A stretch of 30,595 nt of DNA, taken from contig QPGO01000055.1 of NCBI GenBank assembly GCA_008632985.1, forward strand, positions 411,100 to 441,694, in the 5' to 3' direction. The position numbers and the translations under genes were made by a program. The notes below the pieces were generated by a model. It was not told the DNA's origin, ran no database searches, and saw only the letters and a program-made list of their open reading frames with translations. Positions 406-29,438 of the stretch are shown in pieces. Every line of letters begins with the position of its first letter. Position 1 is the stretch's first letter. Origin of the DNA: Psammoneis japonica. Taxonomy: Eukaryota.

Positions 406-784
406 TCTCGATTGCACCAATTCGCGCGGAAATCAAACTTTGGAGCCTCTTAATCTGGCAATGAGACACATGATGCATTGCAGTTGGTGCACTGTTGTTA
501 GAACCATTTGAGCATGGCACAATGGTGTAAAAGTTTAACAGATTAGATGGATTTATTGCAAAAAGGTGCACCCGTCAAAACAGGTCACCATTTTCTCTAA
601 GAAAAAGAACGGCTGTTAGAAGTCTCAATGATTTTGATTTACAGTGGCTGTGAGTTGAACTGCAAAGTGTTGTTGTAACTGCTGGCATTGTTTGACACTA
701 AACCACATCTACAACAACCGCCAATGGCTCCAACACGGAAATGCCATTCGACGAAATGGGCATTTCATCATTCCCGTGTTTCCA

Positions 785-838
785 CCGTTCCGGGACCGCA
801 CCAAAAGCGTTCCGAAACCGCACCAAAAGCGTTCCCGA
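785..838 (+). repeat. Short 22-bp tandem repeat containing CCAAAAGCGTTCC
   Basis: ccgcaccaaaagcgttcc occurs twice at 22-bp spacing (13-mer at 801 and 823). Confidence 0.8.
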
Positions 839-1032
839 AGGGAATCTCTCTAAAAGGCCTGACATCAGAGCATTGTTTTTAGACGTTGGAAACGAATGAG
901 AACCCCACCCGACCATCAATCCACCTGTGATGCGGCAACAAAAACACTGCTGCACGGAACTGGCGCCGCAGCAATCTTGTCAGCATGTGACATGAAACAT
1001 CATGCGCGCAACACACGTCTGTGTTGCTCACC

Positions 1033-1966
1033 ATGCAAATGCGCCTGCCCAAAGCCACAGCAGATTATCTTGCGGGGACAGTCATCCAGAGGCCGATGAG
1101 GTCACAACGGATTTGGAACCGCAGATTTGCCTCGTGCTTCTGCTCTCCGCGAGACGCAGTGTGTGAGTTGTGGGGCCTTCTTGAAGATGATGGCAACATC
1201 CCACGCGGATTTCTGCCCACTCATTTGTTGCACACATTTTGTTTTCTGAAACTGCATGACACTGAAACCACAATGGCCAGAATCTGCGGTGGCACACACG
1301 AGGATACGTTGAGAAAATGGGTGTGGGTTGGGATGGCGCTAATTGCGAATTTGAACTTGGTGCGTGCCATGACTCCAATTTCTCTTTGAAAATCAATGCA
1401 CTGACATTTGATTCACCATAATTTCATCACAGATTGATTGGGAGAACAGGTTTGTGGATGACAATGGCAGTGCATGCAAGGTGACGGTGGACGGCACTGA
1501 CTTTCGCATCAACGAACCATCGCCGTTCGATCCCATCTGGCATTCGCATGAATTCAACGGCGCAGGGCTCAGGTGCGAAATCGCCACATGCATTCAGACA
1601 GGTTGGACAGTTTGGGTGAATGGCCCCCACCCAGCTGGCATTCCTGATTTGAGCATGGCACGAGAGGCGATCAATTGTGAACTTCAAGATGGAGAGTTTT
1701 GCTCAGCTGATGGGGCATGCAGTGACGGACACCAGTGTTGTGTGGCCCCGACCGGCCTGCGCAATGCCGACCAACACATGAAGACCGTCGCTCGCGCCCG
1801 CCACGAAGCTGTCAACGGTTGGTTCAAGCGCTTCCAAATGATGACAAGAACGTGTCGTCATGATCGATTGACGCATCACCTTGCCTTCCAAGCAGTGGCG
1901 AACATCACACAGCTTTCCATTGTGATGGGACACACACCCTTTGAAGTGGAATGCTCAGATGAACAG
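1033..1966 (+). pseudogene. PIF/Harbinger (IS5-like, DDE_Tnp_4-type) transposase, two exons, degraded by Tyr->His/Cys changes
   Basis: Exon 1 (ATG 1033-1359) has an HTH-like HLLHTFCFLKLHDTE...EDTLRKWVW. Exon 2 (from 1433) reads IDWENRF...VTVDGTDFRINEP...WHSHEFNGAGLRCEI...VNGP...ADGAC...RARHEAVNGWFKRF, with the D-D-E triad in VDGTD / ADG / RHE. End set at CAG 1964-1966, an inferred former TAG; the ORF now reads on to 2077. Confidence 0.85.
1360..1432 (+). other. 73-bp spliceosomal intron in the transposase
   Basis: GTGCGT donor at 1360, CTGAC branch site at 1401, CAG acceptor ending 1432; removal joins ...ANLNL to IDWENRF in frame. Confidence 0.85.
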
Positions 1967-2968
1967 GAACCCATTGAGAAATTAGGACATTTTGCAACAT
2001 TTGTTGTGACATTTCTTTGGTCACAGCTGCAAGAGAGCCAGTTTGTCTTGTCTGCAAAAAATTTTCGTTGGGCTTAGTAATGCATGAGCAAAACAGCAAA
2101 ACTTTGTCCAGCAGTTCGGTCTCAGCGTTAAAAGTTACAATGACTGAGGCTGCTGCTGAATCACCAGACGTGAAGACAACAATGATGTCTCCCACCCAGC
2201 ACGTCAGCTCGTTGGTGGGTCGAATGATGAGCGAGACCAACAGCGATTGAGACGAGAGCACTGACGTCAGGGGTGCGAGCAGTGAGCTTCTGATGCGCAC
2301 GTCACAAGGCGCGACATTTGGCTGCCCCCTCTCTGACTCGCACTCACGTGGTGCCATCCATTGCATGCTCGAGATGATGGACGACCGACATCAGTTGTGC
2401 CCCCCTTTCTCTGCACGACGACTTTTCTTCAGTCAAAATGTTTGAAAACACGTGAAAAACAGGGGAAAATGAAAATTTTGATTTTTCATGCAACCCCCTG
2501 ACAGCGCCTTCGCGTCGTTCACGCCCCGCTTCCCTGAATCGTGTGCATCGCGCACGATGCACACCGATTCAGACCTCTCGTGCTTTTCCCTCGGCAAGAA
2601 CTGCTGCCAGATTCAGCACCACTTGGCGACCGGTTGCCTCCGATGACGTTGACTTTGCCACGAGGTGGGGGGAATGAGAGTTTTGTTCCAAAGTCATGTT
2701 TTAAAACAGAAGAGGAGACACATGCCACAGCAGTGGTCCGTGCACATGAAGAAAAGGTTGCAGATGAAACAAAAAATCAAGAGCATGTTCTCCAATCCAC
2801 CTGTGGTCTTCTGCTGAACTCAAGAGGCACAATCTCGGCAGTGACTCAAAGCTTGCACAATGCCGCAAAGCTTGTTTGATGATTGAGAAACTTGGAATGC
2901 TGCCACATGAGATCAGTCTCAAGCAGGCAGAAATGTTGTCAAAATGCAGCGAGCTGAAGACCGAAGCT

Positions 2969-3358
2969 GGCACGTCCCAGGTCCAGGTGGAGCCTCGCAC
3001 CGCTGAGCTGTGACATCGACAGTTTTTTGAATCGCGTCGCATGTCACGCACGCAGATTTCTGCATGATTTTTGCAACATTTTGCATCATTTTACAGTGCA
3101 CTTGTTGAGCGATCCATCCAACAACTTTTGACATTTTTTGTTGCAGCGCGATTCTACAATGTCTTGAGAGTCACGCGGGGCAGGCGCATTTGCAAAAACA
3201 TCAAGTGGCATGAGGCACAATTGTGCCACAAACTTGGCCATTCATTTGATGTTGAAGACAAATGTGTCCATCGATTAAATTCTCGCACTGCGGAGCTTGC
3301 ACACAGAATTCTGCGGGCCCAACGTCACACGGAGTCCCGCCCAGGGCTGGAGCGCATC
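2969..3358 (+). mobile_element. MITE family A, full copy (~390 bp)
   Basis: Imperfect TIRs (GGCACGTCCCAGGTCCAGGTGG ... CCCGCCCAGGGCTGGAGCGCATC); AGCT on both sides (2965-2968, 3359-3362); homologous to 14676-15064. Confidence 0.85.
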
Positions 3359-3461
3359 AGCTCAGATTCAAAAACCAGGCTGGGAGAAGCTTGTGGCTGC
3401 GGGTGACTCCGCGAATCAAGAAAGCCAGCGAGCAGCCAATGTCTGAAGTGGGCTGTGTTGC

Positions 3462-6400
3462 CACTTTTGCGCCCTTTGCGATTTTGCGCCCTTGGCCATT
3501 TTGTGCCCTTTGTGGTTTTGCACCCTTTGTGATTTTGCACCCTTTGTGATTTTGCGCCCTTTGCGATTTTGCACCCTTTGTGATTTTGCACCCTTTGTGA
3601 TTTTGCGCCCTTTGTCATTTTGCACCCTCTGTGATTTTGCACCCTTTGCCACCATTTTGCGCCCTTTGTGATTTTGCACCCTTTGTGATGTTGCGCCCTT
3701 TGTGATTTTGCGCCCTTTGTGATTTTGCACCCTTTGCTGCCATTTTGCGCCCTTTGTGATTTTGAGCCTTTTGCGATTTTGTGCCCTTTGCGATTTTGCA
3801 CCCTTTGTGATTTTGCAAACTTTGCCACCATTTTGTGCCCTTTGTGATTTTGCACCCTTTGCTGCCATTTTGCACTCTTTGCCGCCATTTTGTGCCCTTT
3901 GTGATTTTGCACCCTTTGATGTTTTGCACTCTCTTTGTGATTTTGCACCCTTTGCTGCCATTTTGCGCCCTTTGTGGTTTTGCACACTTTGCCGCCATTT
4001 TGCACCCTTTGCAATTTTGCGCCCTTGGCCATCTCAAGCCCTTGGTCATTTTGCGCCCTTTGTCATTTTGCGCCCATTGTGCCCTTTGTGATTTTGCACC
4101 CTTTGCTGCCATTTTGCGCCCTTTGTGATTTTGAGCCTTTTGCGATTTTGTGCCCTTTGCGATTTTGCACCCTTTGTGATTTTGCACCCTTTGCCGCCAT
4201 TTTGTGCCCTTTGTGATTTTGCACCCTTTGCCGCCATTTTGCACCCTCTGTGATTTTGCGCCCTCTGCGATTTTGCACCCTCTGTGATTTTGCACCCTTT
4301 GCTGCCATTTTGCGCCCTTTGTGGTTTTGCGCCCTTTGCTGAAATTTTGTGCCCTTGGTGATTTTGAGCCTTTTGCGATTTGCACCCTTTGTGATTTTGC
4401 ACCCTTTGCTGCCATTTTGCGCCCTCTGCGATTTTGCACCCTCTGTGATTTTGCACCCTTTGCTGCCATTTTGCGCCCTTTGTGATTTTGCGATTTTGCG
4501 CCCTTTGCGATTTTGCACCCTTTGTGATTTTGCACCCTTTGTGACTTTGCACACTTTGCTGCCATTTTGTGCCCTTTGTGATTTTGAGCCTTTTGCGATT
4601 TTGCGCCCTTTGTGATTTTGCACCCTTTGCTGCCATTTTGTGCCCTCTGCGATTTTGCACCCTCTGTGATTTTGCGCCCTTTGCTGCCATTTTGCGCCCT
4701 TTGTGATTTTGTGCCCTTTGCGATTTTGCACCCTTTGTGATTTTGCACCCTCTGTGACTTTGCACCCTTTGCTGCCATTTTGCACCCTTTGTGATTTTGC
4801 ACCCTTTGCTGCCATTTTGCGCCCTTTGTGATTTTGAGCCTTTTGCAATTTTGCGCCCTTTGTGATTTTGCACCCTTTGCTGCCATTTTGCGCCCTTTGT
4901 GATTTTGCGCATTTTGCGATTTTGCACCCTCTGTGATTTTGCGCCCTTTGTGGCTTTGCACCCTTTGTGGCCATTTTGAACCCTTTGTGATTTTGCACCC
5001 TTTGTGATTTTGCGCCCTTTGCGATTTTGCACCCTTTGCCGCCATTTTGCACCCTCTGTGATTTTGCACCCTTTGTGATTTTGCGCCCTTTGTGATTTTG
5101 CACCCTTTGTGACTTTGCACCCTTTGCTGCCATTTTGCGCCCTTGTGATTTTGAGCCTTTTGCAATTTTGCGCCCTTTGTGATTTTGCACCCTTTGCTGC
5201 CATTTTGTGCCCTTTGCAATTTTGTGCCTTTTGCGATTTTGCACCCTTTGTGATTTTGCACCCTTTGCTGCCATTTTGCGCCCTTTGTGATTTTGCGCAT
5301 TTTGCGATTTTGCACCCTCTGTGATTTTGCGCCCTTTGTGGCTTTGCACCCTTTGTGGCCATTTTGAACCCTTTGTGATTTTGCACCCTTTGTGATTTTG
5401 CGCCCTTTGCGATTTTGCACCCTTTGCCGCCATTTTGCACCCTCTGTGATTTTGCACCCTTTGTGATTTTGCACCCTTTGTGATTTTGCACCCTTTGTGA
5501 TTTTGCACCCTTTGCCGCCATTTTGTGCCCTTTGTGATTTTGCACCCTTTGCCGCCATTTTGCACCCTCTGTGATTTTGTGCCCTCTGCGATTTTGCACC
5601 CTCTGTGATTTTGCACCCTTTGCTGCCATTTTGCGCCCTTTGTGGTTTTGCGCCCTTTGCTGAAATTTTGTGCCCTTGGTGATTTTGAGCCTTTTGCGAT
5701 TTGCACCCTTTGTGATTTTGCACCCTTTGCTGCCATTTTGCGCCCTCTGCGATTTTGCACCCTCTGTGATTTTGCACCCTTTGCTGCCATTTTGCGCCCT
5801 TTGTGATTTTGCGATTTTGCGCCCTTTGCGATTTTGCACCCTTTGTGATTTTGCACCCTTTGTGACTTTGCACACTTTGCTGCCATTTTGTGCCCTTTGT
5901 GATTTTGAGCCTTTTGCGATTTTGCGCCCTTTGTGATTTTGCACCCTTTGCTGCCATTTTGTGCCCTCTGCGATTTTGCACCCTCTGTGATTTTGCGCCC
6001 TTTGCTGCCATTTTGCGCCCTTTGTGATTTTGTGCCCTTTGCGATTTTGCACCCTTTGTGATTTTGCACCCTCTGTGACTTTGCACCCTTTGCTGCCATT
6101 TTGCACCCTTTGTGATTTTGCACCCTTTGCTGCCATTTTGCGCCCTTTGTGATTTTGAGCCTTTTGCAATTTTGCGCCCTTTGTGATTTTGCACCCTTTG
6201 CTGCCATTTTGCGCCCTTTGTGATTTTGCGCATTTTGCGATTTTGCACCCTCTGTGATTTTGCGCCCTTTGTGGCTTTGCACCCTTTGTGGCCATTTTGA
6301 ACCCTTTGTGATTTTGCACCCTTTGTGATTTTGCGCCCTTTGCGATTTTGCACCCTTTGCCGCCATTTTGCACCCTCTGTGATTTTGCACCCTTTGTGAT

Positions 6401-8782
6401 TTTGCACCCTTTGTGATTTTGCACCCTTTGTGACTTTGCACCCTTTGCTGCCATTTTGCGCCCTTTGTGATTTTGAGCCTTTTGCAATTTTGCGCCCTTT
6501 GTGATTTTGCACCCTTTGCTGCCATTTTGTGCCCTTTGCAATTTTGTGCCTTTTGCGATTTTGCGCCCTTTGTGATTTTGCACCCTTTGCTGCCATTTTG
6601 CGCCCTTTGTGATTTTGCGCATTTTGCGATTTTGCACCCTCTGTGATTTTGCGCCCTTTGTGGCTTTGCACCCTTTGTGGCCATTTTGAACCCTTTGTGA
6701 TTTTGCACCCTTTGTGATTTTGCGCCCTTTGCGATTTTGCACCCTTTGCCGCCATTTTGCACCCTCTGTGATTTTGCACCCTTTGTGATTTTGCACCCTT
6801 TGTGATTTTGCACCCTTTGTGATTTTGCACCCTTTGCCGCCATTTTGTGCCCTTTGTGATTTTGCACCCTTTGCCGCCATTTTGCACCCTCTGTGATTTT
6901 GTGCCCTCTGCGATTTTGCACCCTCTGTGATTTTGCACCCTTTGCTGCCATTTTGCGCCCTTTGTGGTTTTGCGCCCTTTGCTGAAATTTTGTGCCCTTG
7001 GTGATTTTGAGCCTTTTGCGATTTGCACCCTTTGTGATTTTGCACCCTTTGCTGCCATTTTGCGCCCTCTGCGATTTTGCACCCTCTGTGATTTTGCACC
7101 CTTTGCCACCATTTTGCACTCTTTGCCGCCATTTTGTGCCCTTTGTGATTTTGCACCCTTTGATGTTTTGCACTCTCTTTGTGATTTTGCACCCTTTGCT
7201 GCCATTTTGCGCCCTTTGTGGTTTTGCACACTTTGCCGCCATTTTGCACCCTTTGCAATTTTGCGCCCTTGGCCATCTCAAGCCCTTGGTCATTTTGCGC
7301 CCTTTGTCATTTTGCGCCCTTTGTGCCCTTTGTGATTTTGCACCCTTTGCTGCCATTTTGCGCCCTTTGTGATTTTGAGCCTTTTGCGATTTTGTGCCCT
7401 TTGCGATTTTGCACCCTTTGTGATTTTGCACCCTTTGCCGCCATTTTGTGCCCTTTGTGATTTTGCACCCTTTGCTGCCATTTTGCACCCTCTGTGATTT
7501 TGCGCCCTCTGCAATTTTGCACCCTCTGTGATTTTGCACCCTTTGCTGCCATTTTGCGCCCTTTGTGGTTTTGCGCCCTTTGCTGAAATTTTGTGCCCTT
7601 GGTGATTTTGAGCCTTTTGCGATTTGCACCCTTTGTGATTTTGCAACCTTTGCTGCCATTTTGCGCCCTCTGCGATTTTGCACCCTCTGTGATTTTGCAC
7701 CCTTTGCTGCCATTTTGCGCCCTTTGTGATTTTGTGATTTTGCGCCCTTTGCGATTTTGCACCCTTTGTGATTTTGCGCCCTTTGTGACTTTGCACACTT
7801 TGCTGCCATTTTGTGCCCTTTGTGATTTTGAGCCTTTTGTGATTTTGTGCCCTTTGTGATTTTGCACCCTTTGCTGCCATTTTGTGCCCTCTGCGATTTT
7901 GCACCCTCTGTGATTTCGCACCCTTTGCTGCCATTTTGCGCCCTTTGTGATTTTGCGCCCTTTGCGATTTTGCACCCTTTGCGATTTTGCACCCTCTGTG
8001 ACTTTGCACCCTTTGCTGCCATTTTGCACCCTTTGTGGTTTTGCACCCTTTGTGATTTTGCACCCTTTGTGATTTTGCACCCTTTGTGACTTTGCACCCT
8101 TTGCTGCCATTTTGCGCCCTTTGTGATTTTGAGCCTTTTGCGATTTTGCGCCCTTTGTGATTTTGCACCCTTTGCTGCCATTTTGCGCCCTTTGTGATTT
8201 TGCGCCCTTTGCGATTTTGCACCCTTTGTGATTTTGCACCCTTTGTGACTTTGCACCCTTTGCTGCCATTTTGCGCCCTTTGTGATTTTGAGCCTTTTGC
8301 GATTTTGCGCCCTTTGTGATTTTGCACCCTTTGTGATTTTGCACCCTTTGTGACTTTGCACCCTTTGCTGCCATTTTGCGCCCTTTGTGATTTTGAGCCT
8401 TTTGCAATTTTGCGCCCTTTGTGATTTTGCGCATTTTGCGATTTTGCACCCTCTGTGATTTTGCGCCCTTTGTGGCTTTGCACCCTTTGTGGCCATTTTG
8501 AACCCTTTGTGATTTTGCACCCTTTGTGATTTTGCGCCCTTTGCGATTTTGCACCCTTTGCCGCCATTTTGCACCCTCTGTGATTTTGCACCCTTTGTGG
8601 CCATTTTGCACCCTTTGTGATTTTGCGCCCTTTGTGATTTTGCGCCCTTTGTGATTTTGCCCCCTTTGTGATTTTGCGCCCTTTGTGATTTTGCACCCTT
8701 TGTGACTTTGCACCCTTTGCTGCCATTTTGCGCCCTTTGTGATTTTGAGCCTTTTGCGATTTTGCGCCCTTTGTGATTTTGC
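3462..8782. repeat. Satellite 1, array 1 (17-bp TTTTGCACCCTTTGTGA and 20-bp TTTTGCACCCTTTGCTGCCA units) with higher-order repeats
   Basis: Continuous tandem units; a landmark variant recurs at 1321/1322-bp and 3244-bp spacing (ORF starts 4349, 5670, 6992, 7593). Confidence 0.97.
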
Positions 8783-10073
8783 ATGATCAGAGACCCGCGG
8801 AAAAGGCCATGAGTCACAGGTCATCGAACCCCGCCATCACATGGTGTGCGCACACACGCAAACATTGGCCAACCCAGCTCCAGAATGGAGTCGACATTGC
8901 TTGTTGGGGGCGCAATGTTTTTGTTTGTTTTTGCTGCACTGATCGGCACATTTCACACTCATTGCTCCCAGGTGCATTTTGTTCAATGTGCACTCATTGA
9001 CTTGCATGCCAACACACCAAGCAACACGGCAGAATTGCTCCTTTGCATCTGAGCAACTGCACTTCGTTCAAACTGAAACATGTTCATTTTCACATTGTGC
9101 GCGCACTTGCGCTGAAAGTGTGGCATTTCCGTCTTCATGACGAACGCCAGTCATTCAGCGAAATTTTCATTTTTTTTGTTTCCCTTTGTGCAAAAAAAAC
9201 CATCCTCGCTGCCAACTCACAATGTTCCTTTTGTGCAGCATTCATCCGGCCAATCGTGCGTGAGGCATTTGACCCCTCCACTTGTGGTCTGCGGACCCAA
9301 TCCCCTGTGCATTTTGTGAGTCAGTGCAGAGCCGCGAAAGTGACATGATGAGGAGTCCATGGATTCTCTGCGCAAGACTGCGCGGGTTCTCCACAAATCA
9401 ATGTTTTAAAGCCCGCTGCGTGCATCATCAAGAGCTGCCAAACAACTCGGCCCCACCATGACAATGAAACGCGACGGCATTGATGCTCACCCCGCCTTTT
9501 GTGAAGCATGTGTGGCCGCCAAGAAACAACAACCAACAGCAAAAAAAAAAGAACAGGCTCCTTCCTTTTGATGCAAGTGGCAAGTTCGTGATTGATCGTT
9601 GATGTGACTGGCCGATGAGTTTGCAGCAAAACACACCTTCAGCATGGGACACACTGCTTCTGATGACATGCGTTCATTGTTGTGGTTGCATCACATGACT
9701 CATTGGTGATTTTTGCTCTGCGAGACTCGGAAGTTGACCCGAATGTGCCGCGTCATGGTCATCGCGGTCGATGACTCGAGAGGTTGGCGAAAGCACATTT
9801 TCCTCGTGCGTGAGCCACGTGGAAATCACTCAGAAAAATGGCTCTTGTTTTTGGATGGAGGGTCTGTTTGAATTCGAGCGCAGGTGTGCAGCCAAATGAA
9901 AAAACGTGCGGGGAGCACTCTTTTCAGGCAAGCAAAAAAACACAAAGAGGGGAAAGGCGCGCAGCACAAAAACAAGTTTTGCTGCAAGTTTTGCTGGGGG
10001 GCTGATGTTGCAAACGGCCGATGATCAAAAGTCTGATGGAGGCATCTTCAAGGCAAGAGATCTCGTGTCAAAG
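8783..10073 (+). repeat. Block B copy 1 (unclassified repeat, internally deleted)
   Basis: Colinear with 11326-12899 (starting offset 2543); lacks ~285 bp present near 12495-12780 and the 12899-13577 tail. Confidence 0.9.
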
Positions 10074-11325
10074 CTGCCATTTTGCGCCCTTTGTGATTTT
10101 GAGCCTTTTGCAGTGTTGCGCCCTCTTTGTGATTTTGCACCCTTTGCTGCCATTTTGCGCCCTTTGTGATTTTGAGCCCATTGCGATTTTGCGCCCTCAG
10201 TGGTTTTGCACCCTTTGCCACCATTTTGCGCCCTTTGTGGTTTTGCGCCCTTTGCGATTTTGCGCCCTTTGTGACTTTGCGCCCTTTGTGATTTTGCGCC
10301 CTTTGCGATTTTGCACCCTTTGTGGTTTTGCACCCTTTGTGGTTTTGCACCCTTTGTGGCCATTTTGCGCCCTTTGTGATTTTGCGCCCTTTGTGATTTT
10401 GCACCCTTTGCGATTTTGCACCCTTTGTCGCCATTTTGCACCCTTTGTGATTTTGAACCCTTTGTGATTTTGCGCCCTTTGCGATTTTGCACCCTCTGTG
10501 ATTTTGCGCCCTTTGTGATTTTGCGCCCCCTGTGATTTTGCGCCCTTTGTGATTTTGCACCCTTTGCCACCATTTTGCACCATTTGTGATTTTGCACCCT
10601 TTGCCGCCATTTTGTGCCATTTGTGATTTTGAGCCTTTTGTGATTTTGCACCCTCTTTGTGGTTTTGCACCCTTTGCTGCCATTTTGTGCCCCATGTGAT
10701 TTTGCACCCTTTCTGATTTTGTGCCATTTGTGATTTTGTGCCCCCTGCGATTTTGCACCCTTTGTGATTTTGCAACCTTTGCCACCATTTTGCGCCCTTT
10801 GTGATTTTGCGCCCTTTGCCGCCATTTTGTGCCCTTTGTGATTTTGAGCCTTTTGCGGTTTTGCACCCTCTTTGTGATTTTGCACCCTTTGCTGCCATTT
10901 TGCGCGGTTTTTGATTTTGGCCCTTTGCAACTTTGTGCCCTTTGTGGCTTTGCACCCTTTGTGGTTTTGCACCCTTTGTGGCCACTTTGCGCCCTTTGTG
11001 ATTTTGCACCCTTTGTGGCTTTGCGCCCTTTGCAACTTTGCACACTTTGTCACCATTTTGCACCCTTTGTGATTTTGCGCCCTTTGCGATTTTGCACTCA
11101 TTGTGATTTTGCACCCTTTGCCCAAATTTTGCACCCTTTGCCGCCATTTTGTGCCCTTTGTGATTTTGAGCCTTTTGCGATTTTGCACCCTTTGTGATTT
11201 TGTGCCCTTTGTGATTTTGTGCCCTTGGCCTTTTTGTGCCCTTTGTGATTTTGCACCCTTTGCCACCATTTTGCGCCCTTTGTGATTTTGCACCCTTTGC
11301 GATTTTGCACCCTTTGTGATTTTGC
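10074..11325. repeat. Satellite 1, array 2
   Basis: Same 17/20-bp units, more diverged than array 1. Confidence 0.95.
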
Positions 11326-13580: not shown

Positions 13581-13582
13581 CC

Positions 13583-14675
13583 ATGATTTGTGATTTTGCA
13601 CCCTTTGTGGCCATTTTGCACCCTTTGTGGCCATTTTGCACCCTTTGCCACTGTTTTGCACCCTTTGTGATTTTGCGCCCTTTGTGATTTTGTGCCCTTT
13701 GCGATTTTGCACCCTTTGTGATTTTGCACCCTTTGTGGTTTTGCACCCTTTGTGGCCATTTTGTGCCCTTTGTGATTTTGCACCCTTTGCAATTTTGCGC
13801 CCTTTGCAGTTTTGCACCCTTTGCCGCCATTTTGCACCCTTTGTGGTTTTGCACCCTTTGTGGCCATTTTGCACCCTTTGCGATTTTGCGCCCTTTGCAA
13901 CTTTGCGCCCTTTGCGATTTTGCACCCTTTGTGATTTTGCACCCTTTGCTGCCATTTTGCGCCCTTTGTGATTTTGCACCCTTTGTGAATTTGCGCCCTT
14001 TGAGATTTTGCACCCTTTGCCGCCATTTTGCACCCTTTGTGACTTTGCGCCCTTTGTGATTTTGCACCCTTTGTGATTTTGCACCCTCTGTGATTTTGCA
14101 CCCTTTGCTGCCATTTTGCGCCCTTTGTGATTTTGCACCCTTTGTGATTTTGCGCCCTTTGCGATTTTGCGCCCTTTGCCGCCATTTTGTGCCCTTTGTG
14201 ATTTTGTGCCCTTTTTGATTTTGCGCCCTCTGCGATTTTGCACCCTCTGTGATTTTGCGCCCTTTGCCGCCATTTTGCGCCCTTTGTGATTTTGCACCCT
14301 TTGTGATTTTGTGCCCTTTGCTGAAATTTTGTGCCCTTGGTGATTTTGAGCCTTTTGCGATTTGCGCCCTTTGTGATTTTGCACCCTTTGCTTCCATTTT
14401 GCGCCCTTTGTGATTTTGCAACCTTTGTGATTTTGCAACCTTTGCCGCCATTTTGCAGCCCATGTGGCTTTGCACCCTTTGCTGCCATTTTGCGCCCCTT
14501 GTGATTTTGAGCCCTTTGCGATTTTGTGCCCTTGGCCACTTTGCACCCTCTGTGATTTTGCACCCTTTGCCGCCATTTTGCACCCTTTGTGATTTTGCGC
14601 CCTTTGTGGTTTTGCACCCTTTGTGGTTTTGCACCCTTTGTGGCCATTTTGCGCCCTTTGTGATTTTGCACCCAT
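13583..14675. repeat. Satellite 1, array 3 (left of MITE insertion)
   Basis: Tandem 17/20-bp units. Confidence 0.95.
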
Positions 14676-15064
14676 GGCGTGTTCCAGGTCTAGGTGAGAC
14701 CTTGCACTGCTGAACTGTGACATCGACAGTTTTTTGAATCACGTCGCATGTTGCGCACGCAGATTTCTGCGTGATTTTTTTGACATTTTGTGTCATTTCA
14801 TGGTTCACTCATTGAGCGATCGTCCAAAAACTTTTGACATTCATTGTTGCAGCGCGATTCTACAATGTCTCAAGAGCTGTGCAGGGCAGGTGCATTTGCA
14901 AAAACGTTGAGTGGCGAGAGGCACAATTGCACCACAAACTTGGCCATTTGTTTGATGTTGAAGACAAGTGCATCCATCAATTAAATTCTCACACTGTGGA
15001 GCTCGCACGCAGAATTCCATGGGCCCAATGTCACACGGAGTCCCACCTGGGGCTGGAACGCACC
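14676..15064 (+). mobile_element. MITE family A, full copy inserted in satellite 1
   Basis: TIRs GGCGTGTTCCAGGTCTAGGTGAGAC ... GTCCCACCTGGGGCTGGAACGCACC; CCAT duplicated (14672-14675, 15065-15068); removal restores a 17-bp satellite unit. Confidence 0.9.
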
Positions 15065-15530
15065 CCATTGTGATTTTGCGCCCTTTGTGATTTTGCACCC
15101 TTTGCCGCCATTTTGCACCCTTTGTGATTTTGCGCCCTTTGCAATTTTGCACCCTTTTTGATTTTGCGCCCTTTGCAACTTTGCGCCCTTTGCGATTTTG
15201 CACCCTTTGTGATTTTGCACCCTTTGCTGCCATTTTGCGCCCACTGTGATTTTGCGCCCTTTTCGATTTTGCACCCTCTGTGATTTTGCACCCTTTGCCG
15301 CCATTTTGTGCCCTTTGTGATTTTGCGCCCTTTGCGACTTTGCACCCTTTGCCGCCATTTTGCGCCCTTTGTGATTTTGTGCCCTTTGCAATTTTGCACC
15401 CTTTGTGGTTTTGCACCCTTTGCAGCCATTTTGAACCCTTTGTGATTTTGCGCCCTCTGCAATTTTGCACCCTCTGTGATTTTGCACCCTTTGCCGCCAT
15501 TTTGCGCCCTTTGTGATTTTGTGCCCTTTG
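15065..15530. repeat. Satellite 1, array 3 (right of MITE insertion)
   Basis: Tandem 17/20-bp units; abuts satellite 2 directly. Confidence 0.95.
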
Positions 15531-16107
15531 CATGTTTGTTTTCATTGAAAAGACATGTTTGATTTCCTTGAAACGACATGTTTGTTTTCCTTGAAACGAC
15601 ATGTTTGTTTTCCTTGAAAAGACACATTTGTTTTCCTCAAAACGACATGTTTGTTTTCCTTGAAATGGCATTTTTGTTTTCCTTTAATCGACATGTTTGT
15701 TTTCCTTGAAACCACATGTTTGTTTTCCTTGAAATGACACGTTTGTTTTCCTTGAAACGACATGTTTGTTTTCATTGAAAAGACATGTTTGTTTTCTTTG
15801 AAACGAAATGTTTGTTTTCCTTGAAAAGACATGTTTGTTTTCCTTGAAAAGACATGTTTGTTTTCTTTGAAACAACATGTTTGTTTTCCTTGAAACGACA
15901 TGTTTGTTTTCATTGAAAAGACATGTTTGATTTCCTTGAAACAACATGTTTGTTTTCCTTGAAACGACATGTTTGTTTTCCTTGAAAAGACACATTTGTT
16001 TTCCTTGAAACAACATGTTTGTTTTCCTTGAAATGGTGTGTTTGTTTTCCTTGAAACAACATGTTTGCTTTCCTTGAAAACACACATTTGTTTTCCTTGA
16101 AATGACA
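15531..16107 (+). repeat. Satellite 2 (23-bp CATGTTTGTTTTCCTTGAAAAGA)
   Basis: Tandem 23-bp units. Confidence 0.96.
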
Positions 16108-16296
16108 GACGCATTCCAGGTCTAGGTGGGACCTTGCACTGCTGAACTGTGACATCGACAGTTTTTTGAATTGCGTCGTGTGTCGCGCACGCACATTTCT
16201 GCGTGACTGTGGCGAAATTTTGTGTGATTTTACACTGCAATTGTCAGGCCATGCATTGATCAACTTTTGGCATTTTTTTCTTCTGCGCCATTCTCG
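16108..16296 (+). mobile_element. MITE family A, truncated copy (left end only)
   Basis: GACGCATTCCAGGTCTAGGTGGGACC followed by family A internal sequence; satellite 2 on both sides. Confidence 0.8.
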
Positions 16297-16393
16297 CTCC
16301 TTGAAAAGACATGTTTGTTTTTTCTGAAACCACATGTTTGTTTTCCTTGAAACGACACGTTTGTTTTCCTTGAAAAGACGTGTTTGTTTTCCT
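16297..16393 (+). repeat. Satellite 2, short array
   Basis: About four 23-bp units. Confidence 0.9.
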
Positions 16394-17355
16394 GCCAGTG
16401 AGTGATCCCGAGAACGACGCATGCGAACAACACGACTTTCACATTCGCTGCCATGGGGCCAACGCTGTTGCTCCGGATTGGGACATTTTGAATGAGATCC
16501 TCCACACCCAGCAAGCTTTGACGCAGCTGTCGGATGCAGCCGATCTTGCTCTGCCTCCAGTGCGATGGGCAAAAGGACATCAAAACAGGCAATCTCCCGT
16601 CCACTCATTGCCGTCAAATGCCAGAGTTAACATCCGAGTGGACAAATTGGCAGGAGCTTGCCAAGGACATTGCCTGCATGACACGAATCAGGTCAAGCAC
16701 CTGCCACATTGCCACTCGCATCTGGAGATCGACGGGGGTGCAATCACGATGAATTGCAAGAAACAAATTCGGTGCGCTGCTGCTGCTCCTGAATTGATGC
16801 AACATGTTGTCGAACGGAACAGATGGGATCCTTCAGCGGCTGACCTTGTTGGCTGGAATGCTCGCGCGGCTCTGGTGAAACGTCACTCACAACAGCATGT
16901 TGACACAGTCAAACTGGTCCATGACTTGCTGCCGACTGACAAGATTGCAAATCAACACAACCCAGTTCGACCGCGCCAATGCATCACATGCGAGCATCCG
17001 ATGGAAGACAGGGACCACATGCTTCGGTGTCCAAACAACGAACAGTGGAGAAGGAAGTTCCTGCAGGGTCTTTGATGCTGCTGCGACAAGATCGATGCTG
17101 TGCCTGCTCTCCGAGACTTCCTCCTGGACATGCTTCAAGCCTGGTTTGATGACGAAATGACGTGCTTCGACAATGTGGACTGTCGATGCAAGGAACTTTG
17201 GCGAGCTCAATTGGATGTTGGTTGGAGACAGGTTTTCAACGGCAGATGCTCGCACATGTGGAATCTTTTACAATCCGGACACCTGCGCGATTCTGGCATT
17301 CTACGACAATGTCAGGAAGAAAACAAACAGCCACCAGATTGGACGGTTCAGATCG
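16394..17355 (+). mobile_element. Non-LTR (LINE, Ambal-like) retrotransposon 3' fragment: RNase H end plus CCHC zinc finger
   Basis: PDWDIL...WAKGHQN...NIRVDKLA (RNase H C-terminus), CITCEHPMEDRDHMLRC (C-x2-C-x8-H-x3-C), QLDVGWRQVFNGRCSHMW; stop at 17073-17075. Confidence 0.8.
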
Positions 17356-17365
17356 GGTCTTTCAA

Positions 17366-17663
17366 TGTGTTTGTCTTCAACATCAAACAAACGGCCAAGT
17401 TTGTGGCACAATCATGCCTCTTGCCACTCAACATTTTTGCAAATGCACCTGCCCTGCACGATTCTTAAGACATTGTAGAATCGCGCTGCAACAAAAAATG
17501 TCAAAAGTTGTTGGATGGATCGCTCAACAAGTGCACCGTAAAATGACACAAAATGTCAAAAAAATCACGCAGAAATCTGCGTGCGCGACATGCGACGTGA
17601 TTCAAAAAACTGTCGATGTCACAGTTCAGCAGTGCGAGGTCCCACCTGGACCTGGAACGTGTC
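17366..17663 (-). mobile_element. MITE family A, truncated copy
   Basis: Reverse complement of 2969 to ~3265; ends GTCCCACCTGGACCTGGAACGTGTC. Confidence 0.85.
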
Positions 17664-17806
17664 AAACATGTCATTCAAAGGAAAACAAACATGTTGTTTC
17701 AAAGAAAACAAACGTGTCTTTTCAAGGAAAACAAACGCGTTGTTTCAAGGAAAACAAACATGTCTTTTTGACAAAAACAAACATGTCTTTTCAAGAAAAA
17801 CAAACA
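17664..17806 (-). repeat. Satellite 2, inverted short array
   Basis: TCAAGGAAAACAAACATG units. Confidence 0.9.
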
Positions 17807-18733
17807 ACTTGGAGCACGCCAAGAAAGCCTTGATGACAGTTGGCCGTTTTGGCATTTAACTCAGGTGAGCCATCCAGTTCAGGCCTGTTTCCCAAGCTCA
17901 AGGGCGTCGACGCATTTGTCGGAAGACACCTGTCAATTTGCTTGAGCTCCAACTCAACATCAGCCAATGCCCATTTGACTCAAAGGTCAGAGGACATGGC
18001 CCAGCGTGCCTTGCTTTCCAAGTCAGACAACTGGCACTTTCTGATCTGGGTGCCCAAGTGCTCCTCCGGCTCGCGAACACTTCTGTCCGTGAGCGTGCAC
18101 CCAGTGCTCACTCAACCCATGATCTTGAAGTTGCGGACCCCTGCCTGGGCGTCACTCTGAGGGTGTTCTTGGCAGCCGTCAGACCAATGATCCACCTCTT
18201 GGAGAGCATCTCTGGCGTGACAGTTGATGCACGACTCAAGGTCAACAGTGCATGCACCCCTTTCCACTTGGCACAATCCAGGTGGACGTCCAGATTGTTC
18301 CGTTCATGTGGCCGGTCTCCCCCAGTGTCATTGTGAGATGCGCTGGCCTGAGCAGCCAAGCAGCGATGCAGAGAATCGTCGTCATTTGCACCCACAATGA
18401 CGCTCTCATTGTGATGGGATGTCTGACACGAACAAGCCGAAGCAATGCACCTGGTTGCACTCATCATTGTCACCCTGATTTTCAAGTCAAGGAAAACAAC
18501 AGAGTGCATGCTGTTGGGATCAAACTGGCGAGGGGTGTCGTGGACAGTTGGCTCACTTGCTCACAGTTGGCTGGGGCACAGCAGGGTGTCAGTCATTCTT
18601 TCCCTGAAAAAAACAGCCTTGTGGGCTGGCAGTGGGCGTGGCTGTCCATTGGCTGGATCAACCCACATGGCAGCAGCCACACAAATGGGGACATTCCTCA
18701 TTGGCGCACACTCTTCGGAGCAAGGATGCACTG
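17807..18733 (-). mobile_element. Ty1/copia (CoDi-like) deletion derivative: protease/pre-integrase piece fused to an RT piece
   Basis: 18130-18733 is homologous to ~21713-22510. Minus-strand 17807-18120 translates as ...CTLTDRSVREPEEHLGTQI...WAMSSDL*VK...TPLSLGNRPELDGSPELNAKTANCHQGFLGVL, matching copia RT (YLG, YRPELD, YYQ..IG). Confidence 0.85.
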
Positions 18734-18734
18734 C

Positions 18735-19347
18735 AGCCCGAGACTTCAGGCAGTGTTGAAGAGAACGGGCACGCAGGCAGTGCATGGTGTGCTGAAACCA
18801 GAAGAGGAGAAGGTGGCTGGAAATGATCTCTTTCCACAGGTGAAGTTTCTCAGCCCGTCAGAATTGGCAAGCAATGGGAGCATCTCAATGTTTGTCAAGA
18901 AACAGATTGCTGGTGGCAACATGGACACTTCAAATTGGTCAGGAACTTGGGAGGAATGGGCAAAAAAGGTGGCAAAAAGGCAGGTTGACAATCTCAGAAA
19001 CACGGTGTGTTCGGCTGTTGGGGCGGAGGCAATGGCCCGCAAGTTGGGTGACCAATGTGTGTGACTCGAGAGTTGCGCGCATCTCACAAGAAGATGACAG
19101 TGATGCTTTGTCTGTGCAGGCTTGTCACCAAGGAAGAGGGAAAGGAAAAAGAAAAGAAACTCAAGGCGGCAGTCAAGAGGAAAAAGCAAGGCAGGAAAAA
19201 GTCAAGCCATGACAAGAATGAAAAGAAAGACATCCCGATTGTGCCGACATGGGATCCGCCCAGCCCAGACACTGTGGCCGGCAGCAAATGAAGGAACAAG
19301 CAGGCACGCAAGCGGTTCTGTGATCACACCCCTGTTTGCAAAAATTG
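18735..19347 (+). pseudogene. 5'-truncated copy of the unknown two-exon gene at 29439
   Basis: RLQAVLKR...LFPQVKFL...WEEWAKK...LRN, an intron-like segment, then KEEGKEKEKK; internal TGA near 19288. Confidence 0.6.
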
Positions 19348-19593
19348 ACAAACCAAGGATTGTGCGGCAATGCAATCACAGATTGGCACATGGCAACAAG
19401 GTGGAGGCAGAAATGGCGATGTGGACACAGTGAAAAATGGCACACATGATTCTCAACAAGTTGTTGTGACATTGGCACAGCAAACTTGCAACCAGTGGTT
19501 GGCCTGTCATTGTGCGACAACACTTTTTTGCAACATTTTGACAAATTGTCGTCATGCAAATCCACACATTTTTAACATTTCGTGCACTCTGAT

Positions 19594-20460
19594 GCGTGTG
19601 TTGTGCACAGCATCATCACACAGCATTTGTCCAACTCTCCCTCTCATTGCAGGATGGGTTGTTGCCATGTGGCGCATCTGCACAGTGGACTTGCGAATTT
19701 GACCATGCACTCCCTCTGTCAGGCAGGATGGGTTGGTGCCATGTGGCGCATCCGGCCAAGGGAGGAGTGGGTTCAAAGCCCAGCCGCCCACCCCGGATGG
19801 GGTTGGAAAGGGGCAGGCCGAGAAAGAAAAGGAGGCTTGGATTTGAGGCCAATTCGAGCCAGCGACCTCAGGAAGCACAAAGACTCACAACCACTCAGAA
19901 CGCTGCACACTGTCCTGGCGAGTGCAGGAGGTTCTCAACAACCCAAGAGGCAAAGAAGTTGCCACTCGGCTGGCTGTTGAGTCCCTTCTCCGCGCACACA
20001 TTTGGGCGTGTGTTGTGCACAGCATCGTCACACAGCATTTGTCCAACTGTCCCTCTTGTTGCAGGGTGGGTTGTCACCATGTGGCGCATCCGCACGGAGG
20101 ACTCATGAATTTGACCATGCACTCCCCATGTTGGCAGGATGGGCCAGCGCCATGTGGCGCATCCGGCCAAGGGAGGAGCGGGCTCAAAGCCCAGCCGCCC
20201 ACCCTGGATGGGGTTGGAAAGGGGCAGGCTGAGAAAGAAAAGGAGGCTTGGATTTGAGGCTGATTCAAGCCAGCGACCTCAGGAAGCGCAAAGACTCACA
20301 ACCACTCAGAGCACTGCACACTGTCCTGGCGAGTGCAGGAGGTTCTCAACAACCCAAGAGGCAAAGAAGTTGCCACTCAGCCAGCTGTTGAGCCCCTTCT
20401 CCGCACACACATTCAGGCATGTGTTGTGCACAGCATCATCACACAGCATTTGTCCAACTG
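19594..20460 (+). repeat. ~412-bp tandem repeat (about 2.1 units)
   Basis: GCRTGTGTTGTGCACAGCATC starts at 19594, 20006 and 20417. Confidence 0.9.
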
Positions 20461-21148
20461 AACATGTCCTTTCAAGGAAAACAAGCATGTTTTCCTTGAA
20501 AAGACATGTTTGTTTTCCTTAAAAAGACATGTTTGTTTTCAGGACATGTTTGTTTTCATTGAAAAGACATGTTCGTTTTCCTTGAAACCACATGTTCGTT
20601 TTCCTTGAAACAACACGTTTGTTTTCCTTGAAAAGACACATTTTTTTCCTTGAAACGACACGTTTGTTTTCCTTGAAAAGACATGTTTGTTTTCCTTGAA
20701 ACGACATGTTTGTTTTCCTTGAAAAGATGTGTTTGTTTTCCCTGAAAAGACACACTTGTTTTCCTTGAAAACACATGTTTGTTTTCCTTGAAACAACATG
20801 CTTGTTTTCCTTGAAAAGACATGTTTGTTTTCCTTAAAAAGACATGTTTGTTTTCAAGACATGTTTGTTTTCATTGAAAAGACATGTTTGTTTTCCTTGA
20901 AACCACATGTTTGTTTTCCTTGAAATGACACGTTTGTTTTCCCTGAAACGACGTGTTTGTTTTCTTTGAAATGACATGTTTGTTTTCCTTGAAATGACAT
21001 GTTTGTTTTCATTGAAAAGACATGTTTGTTTTCCTTGAAAACACACGTTTGTTTTCCTTGAAACGACATGTTTGTTTTCCTTGAAAAGACATTTTTTTCC
21101 CCTTGAAACGACATGTTTGTTTTCCTTGAAAAGACATGTTTGTTTTCA
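20461..21148 (+). repeat. Satellite 2 array
   Basis: Tandem 23-bp units. Confidence 0.96.
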
Positions 21149-23332
21149 CCAATCAAAGAGAGAGAGGGAAGAGATGTCGGGTGTTGAACCTGTCACCTCC
21201 TCTTCTGGGACTCGTCCTCCCATGTCTGACACACTGGCTGCAATCATGCATCGGATGTCACATGCCCATTTGGCACTGTGTGACCAAAGTCGTCTGTGAG
21301 CGCCAGTCCAGCGCAGAGTCACACGGACTCTTTTCTTCAACTCACGAATGGATGCCTCGGCCAGGTTCTGCCAGGGGCTGCATGGAGTGAACACCTCCTG
21401 GTGCATCCTGCATTCCTTGCAGATCTCCTTGGTCTGGCCTTCTGCCATTTCCGGCGCGCCATCCGACACAAGGACCTGCGGTGTGCCAACGTCATGCACA
21501 AATGACATGACGGCATCTGGGTGGTCCTGTTTCCTCTTCCAAGGATGGAACCTGTCACACCCTCTTCCGTTGGCAAGTGCGCTTCCTCCCATCTTGCCAT
21601 GTGTCGATTTGACCTTTGAAAACATCTGGTCGGAGTGGAGTCGTCCCTTGACAGCAGGGAACTTGAGCCAAGGGGCTTTCTTCCGGACTTTCCGTTCGGA
21701 TGGTGTGCAGACATTGCGGACCCCTGCCTGGGTCATCACTCTGATGGTGTTCTCAGCAGCCGTCAGGCCAATGTTCCACCTTTTAGAGAGTGTCTTGGGC
21801 GCGACAGTTGATGCACGACTCAAGGTCGACAGTGCATGCACCCGTTTCCGCTCGGCACAATCCAGGTGGACATCCAGGTCATGCCGGTCGTGTGGCCCCT
21901 CTCCCTCAGTGTCGTTGTGGGAGACATTCGCCTGAGCAACCATGCGGCGATGCAATGAATTGTCGTCATCAGTGTCCACAATGACGCTCTCGTCATGACA
22001 GGACATTTGGTTTGAATGAATGGAAGCAACACACCTGGCCACATTCATTGTCGTCGACCATCCGCCCGACTTTGCTGATCCTTGGCGCACACTGGCACAT
22101 GCACGCGCTTCCTCCTTTTGCGCCATGGCATCAGCAGAAGGCTCCCATCTCGGGGGTGATGTGAGTTCCAGCCAGGGGAGGTTCTCCAGATCCTCATTTG
22201 TTGGCTCGTGTGAATCAAAGACAGAAGCAACGCCTCTTGTTCGCAGCGGCACCCTGATCTTCAAGTCAGGGAAAGCAGTGGAGTGCGTGCCAGTCGGATC
22301 AAACTGGCAAGGGGTGTCGTGGACAATCAGCCCATTTGCTCGCAGTTGGTTGGGGCACAGAAGGGTGTTGGTCATCTTGTCCCCAAAAAACATGGCCTCG
22401 TGGACTGGCAGCAAGCGCGGCTGTCCATCAGTTGGATCAACCCACACGGCAGCAGCCATGCAAACAGGAGTGTTTTCCATTGGCGCGTGCTCTTCGGAGT
22501 GGGGGTGCACCACGACAGTTCTGTCGATGTCAGAGCACATCACAAAATTGGACCCAACAGCACACGTGTCAGCGCGCGAGTCTAAGTCAGTGGTGGCTTC
22601 GTCATCTGAATTTCCAGCAGATGACAAAGAGACACGCACATCCTTTGAGAATCACCCAGACAAACAAACAGTGCCAGCAGGTTTGGCGACATTTGGTTCT
22701 GTGCCTTTCAGTGCTGGCGCAACTGTTCATTCCTCATTCTGAGGTTTCTCATGTGCGCTGCATCCAAACTGGGTGCCTGCATTGGCGGCAGGTTCATCAG
22801 GCTCGTCGGAGTCTTTCGGTGCATCAGCAGGTTGAGTGGCAGGCTCGGCAACAGCCGCTTTCTTTACAGCGAGAGTTTCGGCATCGACCGACTCAGCTTC
22901 CAAGGACACAGCAGCAGCTTTGCATTTCTTTTTGGCCTTCTTGGCGTCGCGGAGCTTTTGGACTTGCTCTTGCTCGGGACCGTCAAGAGCACTCCGGTCA
23001 GAGATGCCCTTCAGAAAGTCAGAGACCTTCTTGGTCTCGGCCACCAGTTCATCAAGCTCAGACAAGTCGTTGCGAGCCTTTTGATGACGCTGAATGTGCT
23101 GGTCAAATGCAAATCGACCCCGTCCGGTGCAATTCGCGGCAGCAATCTGTGCATGAGCACGGTTCTTTTGGGTGGTGGTGGCAGCTGATCCTTCCGCCTG
23201 CCTCTCAAGTGCAAAGAAAGCAGTGCGACCATCGCGGCTGCGATTGGAAGGTTTGACAAAAGCCCATCCGGGCCCCCCCCCATCACTGACTTCTTCAGGA
23301 GATCATGCAGACGTTGCCTGTCCTGCGCATGC
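21149..23332 (-). mobile_element. Ty1/copia (CoDi-like) fragment: gag, protease, integrase; no RT or LTR
   Basis: Gag PGWAFVK...DGRTAFFALERQAEG...ETKKVSDFLKGISD...NAGTQFG; protease DLDSRADTCAVGSN; TLLCPNQLRANG; LSKRWNIGL; integrase LHSDQMF...DVGTPQVLVSDGA...PCSPWQNLAEASIRELK...TPDIS; cut by satellite 2 on the left and the LINE duplicate on the right. Confidence 0.92.
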
Positions 23333-23838
23333 TGGCTGGAATGCTCGTGCGGCTCTGGTGAAACGTCACTCACAACAGCATGTTGACACAGTCAAACTGG
23401 TCCATGACTTGCTGCCGACTGACAAGATCGCAAATCAACACAACCCAGTTCGACCGCGCCAATGCATCACATGTGAGCATCCGATGGAAGACAGGGACCA
23501 CATGCTTTGGTGTCCAAACAACGAACAGTGGAGAAGGAAGTTCCTGCAGGGTCTTTGATGCTGCTGCGACAAGATCGATGCTGTGCCTGCTCTCCGAGAC
23601 TTCCTCCTGGACATGCTTCAAGCCTGGTTTGATGACGAAATGACGTGCTTCGACAATGTGGGCTGTCGATGCAAGGAACTTTGGTGAGCTCAATTGGGCG
23701 TTGGTTGGAGACAGGTTTTCAATGGCAGATGCTCGCACATGTGGAATCTTTTGCAATCCGGACACCTGCGTGATTCTGGCATTCTACGACAATGTCAGGA
23801 AGAAAACAAACAGCCACCAGATTGGACGGTTCAGATCG
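23333..23838 (+). mobile_element. LINE 3' fragment (duplicate)
   Basis: CITCEHPMEDRDHMLWC zinc finger; copy of 16850-17355. Confidence 0.8.
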
Positions 23839-23848
23839 GGTCTTTCAA

Positions 23849-24146
23849 TGTGTTTGTCTTCAACATCAAACAAACGGCCAAGTTTGTGGCACAATCATGC
23901 CTCTTGCCACTCAACATTTTTGCAAATGCACCTGCCCTGCACGATTCTTAAGACATTGTAGAATCGCGCTGCAACAAAAAATGTCAAAAGTTGTTGGATG
24001 GATCGCTCAACAAGTGCACCGTAAAATGACACAAAATGTCAAAAAAATCACGTAGAAATCTGCGTGTGCGACATGCGACGTGATTCAAAAAACTGTCGAT
24101 GTCACAGTTCAGCAGTGCGAGGTCCCACCTGGACCTGGAACGTGTC
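23849..24146 (-). mobile_element. MITE family A, truncated copy (duplicate)
   Basis: Copy of 17366-17663. Confidence 0.85.
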
Positions 24147-25243: not shown

Positions 25244-25244
25244 C

Positions 25245-29420: not shown

Positions 29421-29438
29421 TGCTGTGAAAAGATCAAG

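Follow-up and report, generated by a model that had tools for sequence, protein, structure and literature searches.

The window analysed here is a 30595-bp stretch of contig QPGO01000055.1, numbered from its first base, which consists throughout of transposon, satellite or telomere repeat and holds no host gene that could serve for contrast. Its composition is ordinary (A 6440, C 7519, G 7350, T 9286), and the dinucleotide TA is nearly missing from it, with 64 seen against about 1950 expected from the base counts, an observed/expected ratio of about 0.03. The first kb contains 17 of these TA and the other 29.6 kb contain 47 (a TpA frequency of about 0.0016 past 1 kb); counted by segment there are 17 in 1-900, 13 in 1000-3300 and 34 in 3300-30595, the density dropping toward a telomere-type array at the far end. 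Past 1 kb the observed/expected ratio of TA per kb is 0.00-0.09. CA and TG stand at 1.2-2.0 in the window, AA, TT and AT are not depleted in the per-kb dinucleotide counts (AA 0.5-1.9), and CpG runs from 0.4 to 0.9. As TA is part of two of the three stop codons, frames lie open over all six phases, 125 of them at least 100 amino acids long from stop to stop. The features on which the argument turns are the following.

1..30595, no strand: TpA-depleted, CpA+TpG-enriched block, 64 TA; Rho TpA <=0.43 in 30 of 30 one-kb bins, 26 of which also pass Rho CpA+TpG >=1.52
349..928, no strand: TA-keeping island, with 14 of the window's 64 TA, at positions 451-880
1039..1383, plus strand: N-terminal part of the transposase, as a first exon or frame (tblastn with homologue P0028, residues 1-113)
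1412..2074, plus strand: DDE_Tnp_4-type transposase core, a Tyr-less pseudogene (221 amino acids, 0 Tyr)
16847..21148, no strand: copy 1 of a 4.3-kb segmental duplication, 95.4% identity to copy 2
18138..18731, minus strand: truncated N-terminal copy of the integrase-type element (tblastn with four homologues)
21149..22651, minus strand: rve-like (putative integrase-type) open frame, Tyr-less (501 amino acids, 0 Tyr)
23330..27724, no strand: copy 2 of the segmental duplication, 95.4% identity to copy 1
24648-25241 and 28748-29032, minus strand: sister truncated copies of the integrase-type element (tblastn)
30104..30592, plus strand: terminal telomere-type hexamer array without TA (TTGGGG 40, TCAGGG 16, CCAGGG 7)

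Two of the open frames could be placed among transposon proteins through their relatives. Family scans used stop-to-stop open reading frames (ORFs), and among the 96 ORFs of at least 90 amino acids outside the satellites the sole relevant Pfam match is that of DDE_Tnp_4 to 1412-2074, which scores 17.9 bits where the cut-off is 24.8. This frame has 2049 homologues at E<=0.001 in a representative library, and DDE_Tnp_4 is matched in 21 of the 41 members of the larger alignment built from them (A2), with a best E of 4e-15, so via its homologues the frame classes as a DDE_Tnp_4 transposase of the PIF/Harbinger type. A search for longer homologues of this ORF found none. The homologues contain on average about 3.4% Tyr, and the named relative is from the diatom Seminavis robusta (44% identity). 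The 501-residue frame is more remote from described families: its 24 homologues share 30-51% identity with it and carry no precomputed Pfam domain, and it has no Pfam match of its own. Sub-threshold rve matches are present in six of 18 aligned homologues (best E 2e-4), the protein's profile reaches retroviral integrase cores at E of about 0.02, and a score of 0.89 links it to an Atlas cluster that has rve and gag_pre-integrs, a lead only. The nearest Atlas cluster is mostly Bacillariophyta, the named relative is from Phaeodactylum (30%), and the homologues contain 2.0-4.9% Tyr. On this evidence 21149-22651 would be a distant integrase-type protein.

The initial annotation had read this part of the window as copia elements with integrase, reverse transcriptase (RT) and gag, and had quoted ten peptide strings in which tyrosines seemed to be lost. 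All ten strings are found at or near the places given for them, as are the codons TGT CAT at minus-strand 17838-17833. The RT and gag labels found no support in the family searches. The supposed RT strings (EHLG, 18052-18063; ANCHQG, 17827-17844) show no RVT_2 match and lie beyond the point, 18138, at which tblastn homology ends, and the ORF carrying RAH and DQH (22730-23302) shows no gag match; indeed the ORFs holding these motifs have no Pfam match better than E 0.47 when families are searched to E 10. No RVT_2 or gag family occurs in the 96 ORFs, and no RT family in the 18 integrase-type homologues. The label of a Ty1/copia long terminal repeat retrotransposon is thus unsupported as regards the RVT_2 and gag domains; an rve core is represented by the sub-threshold matches of the homologues.

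What did stand was the observation that conserved tyrosines have become His or Cys in two unrelated proteins. The six quoted transposase and integrase motifs fall on columns where Tyr is the majority residue, in the transposase WHSH (Tyr in 24 of 40 homologues), GLRCEI (36 of 40) and ADGAC (32 of 40), and in the integrase-type protein LHSD (10 of 16), FHP (14 of 16) and PCSPWQN (10 of 14). All four Tyr-majority columns of the transposase are changed in this way (H1 C3), and of the ten Tyr of its closest homologue (69% identity) the window has two as His and six as Cys. The 13 Tyr-majority columns of the integrase-type protein read H6 C3 R1 F1 N1 L1, with Tyr kept in none. Over the columns of both proteins conserved at >=60%, Tyr is kept in 0 of 13, compared with 17 of 18 for Lys and Asn together, 9 of 9 for Trp, 24 of 26 for Gly and 17 of 18 for Asp (in the integrase-type protein K 7/7, W 6/6, N 6/6, G 17/18 and D 12/13), and in the transposase 64 of 77 conserved non-Tyr columns are kept. 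Taken from the side of the window, the homologues' mean Tyr fraction is 0.19 where it has His (32 positions) and 0.20 where it has Cys (25 positions); for seven other residues the value lies at 0.01-0.08. Changed conserved columns number 70 of 289; 19 are explained by a single TpA->TpG (11) or TpA->CpA (8) step and six by CpG-type steps. A check for intact, active homologues with His or Cys at the Tyr columns turned up a few carriers, themselves Tyr-less, TA-poor copies and not intact active elements.

The DNA alignments agree. In six pooled alignments that set the window and three metagenome loci, as TA-poor copies, against TA-bearing relatives, the relatives' 65 TA sites read CA in 26 cases, TG in 20 and TA in two in the TA-poor copies, other dinucleotides being kept at 30-62%. 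Paralogues in a public sequencing run (X1) restore TA at the window's CA or TG in 15 of 40 listed variant places. The earlier inference of TA->CA/TG change, with Tyr->His/Cys as its consequence in unrelated proteins, is thus borne out by four kinds of test, and the direction is from TA to CA or TG and the process is restricted to TpA, the ApA-containing codons of Lys and Asn being spared. The reverse direction, in which the window would be unmutated and its relatives mutated as if by RIP (repeat-induced point mutation), is ruled out by the Tyr columns together with the CA-versus-TG doublets described next.

Copies inside the window record the separate events. Old integrase-type copies differ at 58 positions in 261 bp, and 26 of the mismatched bases form 13 adjacent CA-versus-TG doublets, the pattern to be expected if a single ancestral TA was converted on one strand in one copy and on the opposite strand in another. 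The two copies of the 4.3-kb duplication (4266 aligned bp) differ by 12 such doublets and by five TA present in one copy only, share six TA, and show 49 mismatches of all other kinds. Presuming random strand choice, with concordant conversions as many as discordant ones, we estimate that about 35 TA were present at the duplication and that about 76% have since been lost in each copy, giving a per-site TpA rate that, as an estimate and not a measurement, is some 250-fold that of the background (non-CpG, non-TpA) and some tenfold that of CpG over this alignment. By this comparison the events were independent between copies, and the process evidently continued after the internal duplication. The copies also carry 37 one-sided CpG-versus-CpA/TpG differences against 121 shared CpG, the mark of CpG-type decay, or the reverse of it, running alongside the TpA process.

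Along the sequence CA and TG outcomes are intermixed without strand runs, and the footprint is therefore one of accumulated single events; a single processive sweep is ruled out by the lack of strand-coordinated runs. The flanking bases do not predict whether CA or TG results, and a rule that TAA is slow to change was dropped when a hand tally found it contradicted at four of six polarised sites. Of the 47 TA that survive past 1 kb, TTAA accounts for 20, compared with a share of 8.2% among 6643 TA in TA-normal related loci (p ~2e-10), the count being 15 of 38 when the duplicate block is set aside. Hardly any survivors stand in an ATA context, and together these biases suggest that the process prefers certain flanks. 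In the telomere-proximal copy (28775-30094, aligned with 18471-19334) six or seven plus-strand ApA sites read G where its two sisters read A, and one ApA-site difference runs the opposite way, a hint that there may be a second, weaker context or that strand matters close to the end.

Support for the window as real DNA comes from contigs of a sequencing run and from environmental contigs. Run X1 contains 52% of the sampled 31-mers of 1000-3400, and no RNA run is listed as sharing 31-mers of that segment. Of the 2289 X1 contigs that align to the window, 284 are >=99% alike, and two that cover the TA-free stretches of 137 and 168 bp within 2175-2478 differ from it at one and zero positions, at depths of 339 and 247. 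Most aligned X1 contigs are paralogues, whose differences are mainly transitions (C>T at 58 places, G>A at 64, A>G at 39, T>C at 31); at position 3243, for example, T makes up 135883 of 156013 depth units and restores a TA. A second run of the same sample (X2), whose contig size profile resembles a transcriptome, holds TA-bearing versions of the 5' part of the transposon over 747-1283.

Seven of 150 representative transposase homologues lack Tyr, and all seven are from metagenomes. A scan of 80 related metagenome loci, made with an alignment (A3) smaller than A2, gives TA observed/expected ratios from 0.12 to 0.95 that correlate with Tyr content (Spearman 0.49, p = 4e-6), and three of the loci (L023, L047 and L006) have no Tyr and a TA ratio of 0.05-0.22 in the transposase match. 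The same footprint is thus seen in separate environmental contigs. On a further contig (L018, 266-1054, minus strand) a Tyr-less frame of 262 amino acids lies in a 700-bp TA-free stretch beside a transposase with near-normal TA, so that depletion there looks patchy. TA-poor zones at the elements of longer metagenome loci were considered as evidence of targeting and set aside, such a zone, in L007 at least, being the coding sequence between TA-rich 152-nt terminal repeats.

In the literature searched, TpA-only A:T->G:C hypermutation was known from one report, a 2026 preprint on virus-derived DNA of Bigelowiella natans (bioRxiv 10.64898/2026.01.13.699255), and no other description of TA->CA/TG hypermutation was found among the matches listed. 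According to that preprint, de novo mutations called from Illumina data in internal virus-derived regions consist nearly entirely of A->G/T->C changes and all fall on TpA; they occur at about 6e-7 per site per generation in integrated giant-virus and virophage regions of some mutation-accumulation lines only, the events ranging from about 1e-7 to 1e-6 per site per generation (10.64898/2026.01.13.699255). The preprint further describes 124 clusters of TpA-depleted, CpA+TpG-enriched 1-kb windows and 324 coding sequences low in TpA (mean frequency 0.0018), among which DDE endonuclease and RT domains are over-represented, and it proposes an ADAT2-like adenine deaminase as a candidate. In its main text the terms telomere, TTAA, tyrosine, diatom and 'other species' are absent (10.64898/2026.01.13.699255).

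The window resembles the B. natans regions in that the changes are TpA->TpG/CpA only, in passing both of the preprint's thresholds in the 26 of 30 bins mentioned above, and in its TpA frequency past 1 kb, which is close to that of the low-TpA coding sequences there. It differs in being near saturation (Rho 0.00-0.09), where the active viral region of B. natans has Rho 0.45, in covering DNA transposons, satellites and a telomere-type array instead of virus-derived DNA, and in being known from end-state sequence alone, with no de novo event observed. The relatives of its elements are diatom-like and no B. natans protein is named among the 113 and 24 hits of the two window proteins, indirect signs that this is probably a different lineage.

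Other systems share parts of the pattern. RIP in ascomycete fungi likewise ruins repeated and mobile DNA by dinucleotide-directed transitions and leaves a strong dinucleotide skew, but it converts CpA to TpA (C->T), the opposite direction to that of the window, which loses TpA and gains CpA and TpG. It was rejected for want of the TpA excess and CpA/TpG deficit that it produces, TA standing at about 0.03 and CA/TG at 1.2-2.0, with the direction set by the Tyr columns. RIP is also set off by duplication of sequence and requires a RID-type DNA methyltransferase; in the window a repeated island within the block has kept its TA. APOBEC3 (C->U on DNA) and ADAR (A->I on double-stranded RNA) also inactivate invaders by enzyme-driven, context-dependent transitions. 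ADAR favours a 5' U. It accepts U or A as the preferred 5' neighbour, whereas the window spares ApA, and both are animal families. ADAR hyperediting of RNA, fixed by retro-copying, was rejected on the same ground of spared ApA and also on the kinds of DNA affected: a cut-and-paste transposon, satellites and telomere repeats are all among them, and the change must therefore be at the DNA level. Decay of CpG by deamination of 5-methylcytosine is alike in form, with a symmetric dinucleotide lost site by site on either strand to TG or CA without strand runs; here the target is TpA, the direction is AT->GC and TpA is lost at an estimated tenfold the pace of CpG or thereabouts in the same alignment.

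We consider it likely, with a probability of roughly 0.7, that the window is a chromosome or contig end made up of degenerate transposons, satellites and a telomere-type array in which TA has been converted almost completely by a TpA-specific transition process. The comparisons above show a transition process that is heritable, restricted to TpA, strand-symmetric, active site by site and over a long time, and far faster than background. Each TA would become CA or TG, that is, A would change to G on one strand or the other. It would be the same kind of process as the TpA-only hypermutation of B. natans, driven by an enzyme and aimed at silent, foreign or repeated DNA, so that the logic would be that of RIP and the chemistry another. 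The most likely chemistry would be deamination of adenine in 5'-TA-3' of DNA by a deaminase of the ADAT2/TadA type. ADAT2 and TadA edit A34 of tRNA after the invariant U33, a position that would give the putative deaminase its 5'-T rule. Such an enzyme would act site by site over many generations, not in a single processive sweep.

Several points weigh against this account. The 580-bp island at 349-928 lies inside the block and retains its 14 TA although it is highly repeated (the depth of aligned run contigs rises to about 2500-3500 exactly over 349-928), and repetition alone therefore triggers no instant conversion; the island is probably a younger insertion into a region already free of TA. 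The seven CCAGGG units of the telomere-type array require a T->C change outside TpA, and may go back to a single variant that unequal exchange multiplied. TpA-only change also leaves unexplained a few A/G differences at ApA between the copies. TA across codon boundaries gave no significant signal (9 of 96 against 11 of 143, p = 0.64, counting T|G.. codons whose homologues have an A-start counterpart). Only 52% of the sampled 31-mers of 1000-3400 are in X1, at some places, such as 1550, all aligned X1 contigs differ from the window, and the run, for which no platform is recorded, may be the window's own source sample. With no host gene in the window, targeting to repeated or foreign DNA is not separable from an effect of the chromosome end. 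The case is built on sequence, an enzyme, a modified base and a de novo event not being among the observations, and the B. natans preprint is not peer reviewed and treats its deaminase as a candidate only.

The proximity of a chromosome end invites a passive explanation, in which a regional bias is left by a Pol-eta-like polymerase, through repeated error-prone repair or through break-induced synthesis at the end, or else by a symmetric TpA thymine modification that mispairs with G. Pol eta has its hotspot at WA, where A changes to G, and mispairing with G is possible for oxidised thymines. The block does adjoin the telomere-type array and its TA density falls toward it, its events are site by site without strand runs as in CpG decay, and it is the telomere-proximal copy that several ApA A/G differences set apart from its sisters. 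Yet undepleted ApA and the 17 of 18 retained Lys and Asn columns fit a WA hotspot poorly, the Tyr-less, TA-poor copies on short metagenome contigs have no telomere in sight, and the B. natans signature is reported from internal regions and from some lines only (10.64898/2026.01.13.699255). As for the thymine version, no report of 5-hydroxymethyluracil in diatoms was found, the matches listed concerning dinoflagellates by title. A regional bias is on balance unlikely.

We regard as very improbable an artefact of reading or assembly, by which a modified base at TpA would be miscalled as CA or TG. The units of the telomere array are noisy in length, as is typical of a long-read consensus, about half of the sampled 31-mers are missing from X1, and the authors of a diatom PacBio assembly with degenerate G-rich telomeres flagged their need for Illumina confirmation (PMC8329260). 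Against miscalling, the two X1 contigs reproduce TA-free stretches almost exactly at depths of 247-339, independent metagenome contigs share the footprint, and the B. natans de novo events came from Illumina data (10.64898/2026.01.13.699255). Furthermore, the two copies of the duplication, 95% identical, have the same outcome at almost every CA/TG site, discordant doublets numbering only 12 over 4.3 kb, and random per-site miscalls therefore do not fit. Misreading of 5-hydroxymethyluracil or a base J-type modification in particular is weakened by the matching X1 contigs, the agreement of copies and the metagenome loci. Selection against TA without any mutational drive, through a TA-cutting nuclease or avoidance of insertions that target TA or TTAA, could draw on the non-random survivors, with TTAA so over-represented, but avoidance of TTAA insertion should remove TTAA first and it persists longest. 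Dead transposon genes and satellites are affected, the lost conserved Tyr and six-phase open frames fit neutral decay, and the rate is about 250 times background, all of which makes selection hardly credible.

If a TpA-specific process is accepted, the window adds to the B. natans report a more extreme case in other kinds of sequence and shows the end state, 30 kb in which TA is essentially extinct. If the lineage assignment also holds, the process would span two eukaryotic supergroups, and the idea of a conserved genome-editing immunity would become directly testable in transformable diatoms. There are practical consequences too, as the six-phase open frames of TA-free blocks confuse gene callers and their proteins drop below family thresholds (both ORFs here missed Pfam cut-offs), while replacement of Tyr by His or Cys at conserved columns provides a simple detector of the process.

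A wider reading, which we put forward tentatively and hold to be somewhat less than an even chance, is that TpA editing is no oddity of one chlorarachniophyte but a widespread algal genome defence, found at least in Rhizaria and diatoms, which would silence, by mutation, any repeated or silent DNA including cut-and-paste transposons, satellites and telomerase-made TTAGGG, with TTAA as its poorest substrate, and which would explain the degenerate G-rich telomeres described for one pennate diatom. In the long-read assembly of the pennate diatom Nitzschia inconspicua, TTGGGG is mixed into a TTAGGG-type telomere, and a 12-mer in which one TTAGGG is preserved is the most frequent unit (PMC8329260). 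The array of the window is unlike this in having no canonical TTAGGG and in having TCAGGG and CCAGGG, alongside length-variant units. Any link of the N. inconspicua telomeres to TpA editing is our conjecture and is not drawn by that paper (PMC8329260).

The remaining features of the window are repeats and the possible ends of the transposase element.

1034..1050, plus strand: left arm of a 17-nt perfect inverted repeat, a candidate terminal inverted repeat
3178..3194, minus strand: right arm of that inverted repeat, within a repeat of very high copy number
3465..8783, no strand: 17-bp satellite array, TA-free (0 TA per kb)
10079-11326, 13587-14673 and 15064-15530, no strand: further 17-bp satellite arrays
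15531..16107, no strand: 23-bp satellite array, with further arrays at 20488-21147 and 26974-28681

The inverted repeat 1034-1050/3178-3194 brackets the transposase element, and no target-site duplication, which is of 3 bp in PIF/Harbinger transposons, was recognised at it. The 17-bp satellite, in 3465-8783 and its sister arrays, is extremely asymmetric between strands, with an AT skew of about -0.63 and a GC skew of about -0.17, and has higher-order periods at 71 and 88 bp. A unit of 411-412 bp is repeated 2.1 times at 91% identity within each copy of the segmental duplication (19594-20460 and 26105-26972), and the TA-keeping island is flanked by short arrays of 11-mer and 22-mer repeats at 359-407 and 786-835. 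The very high-copy repeat extends over 2901-3364, where aligned contig depth reaches 42000-139000 against hundreds elsewhere; it has inverted copies at 17370-17664 and 23853-24147, and most of its copies in the run retain TA where the window reads CA or TG.

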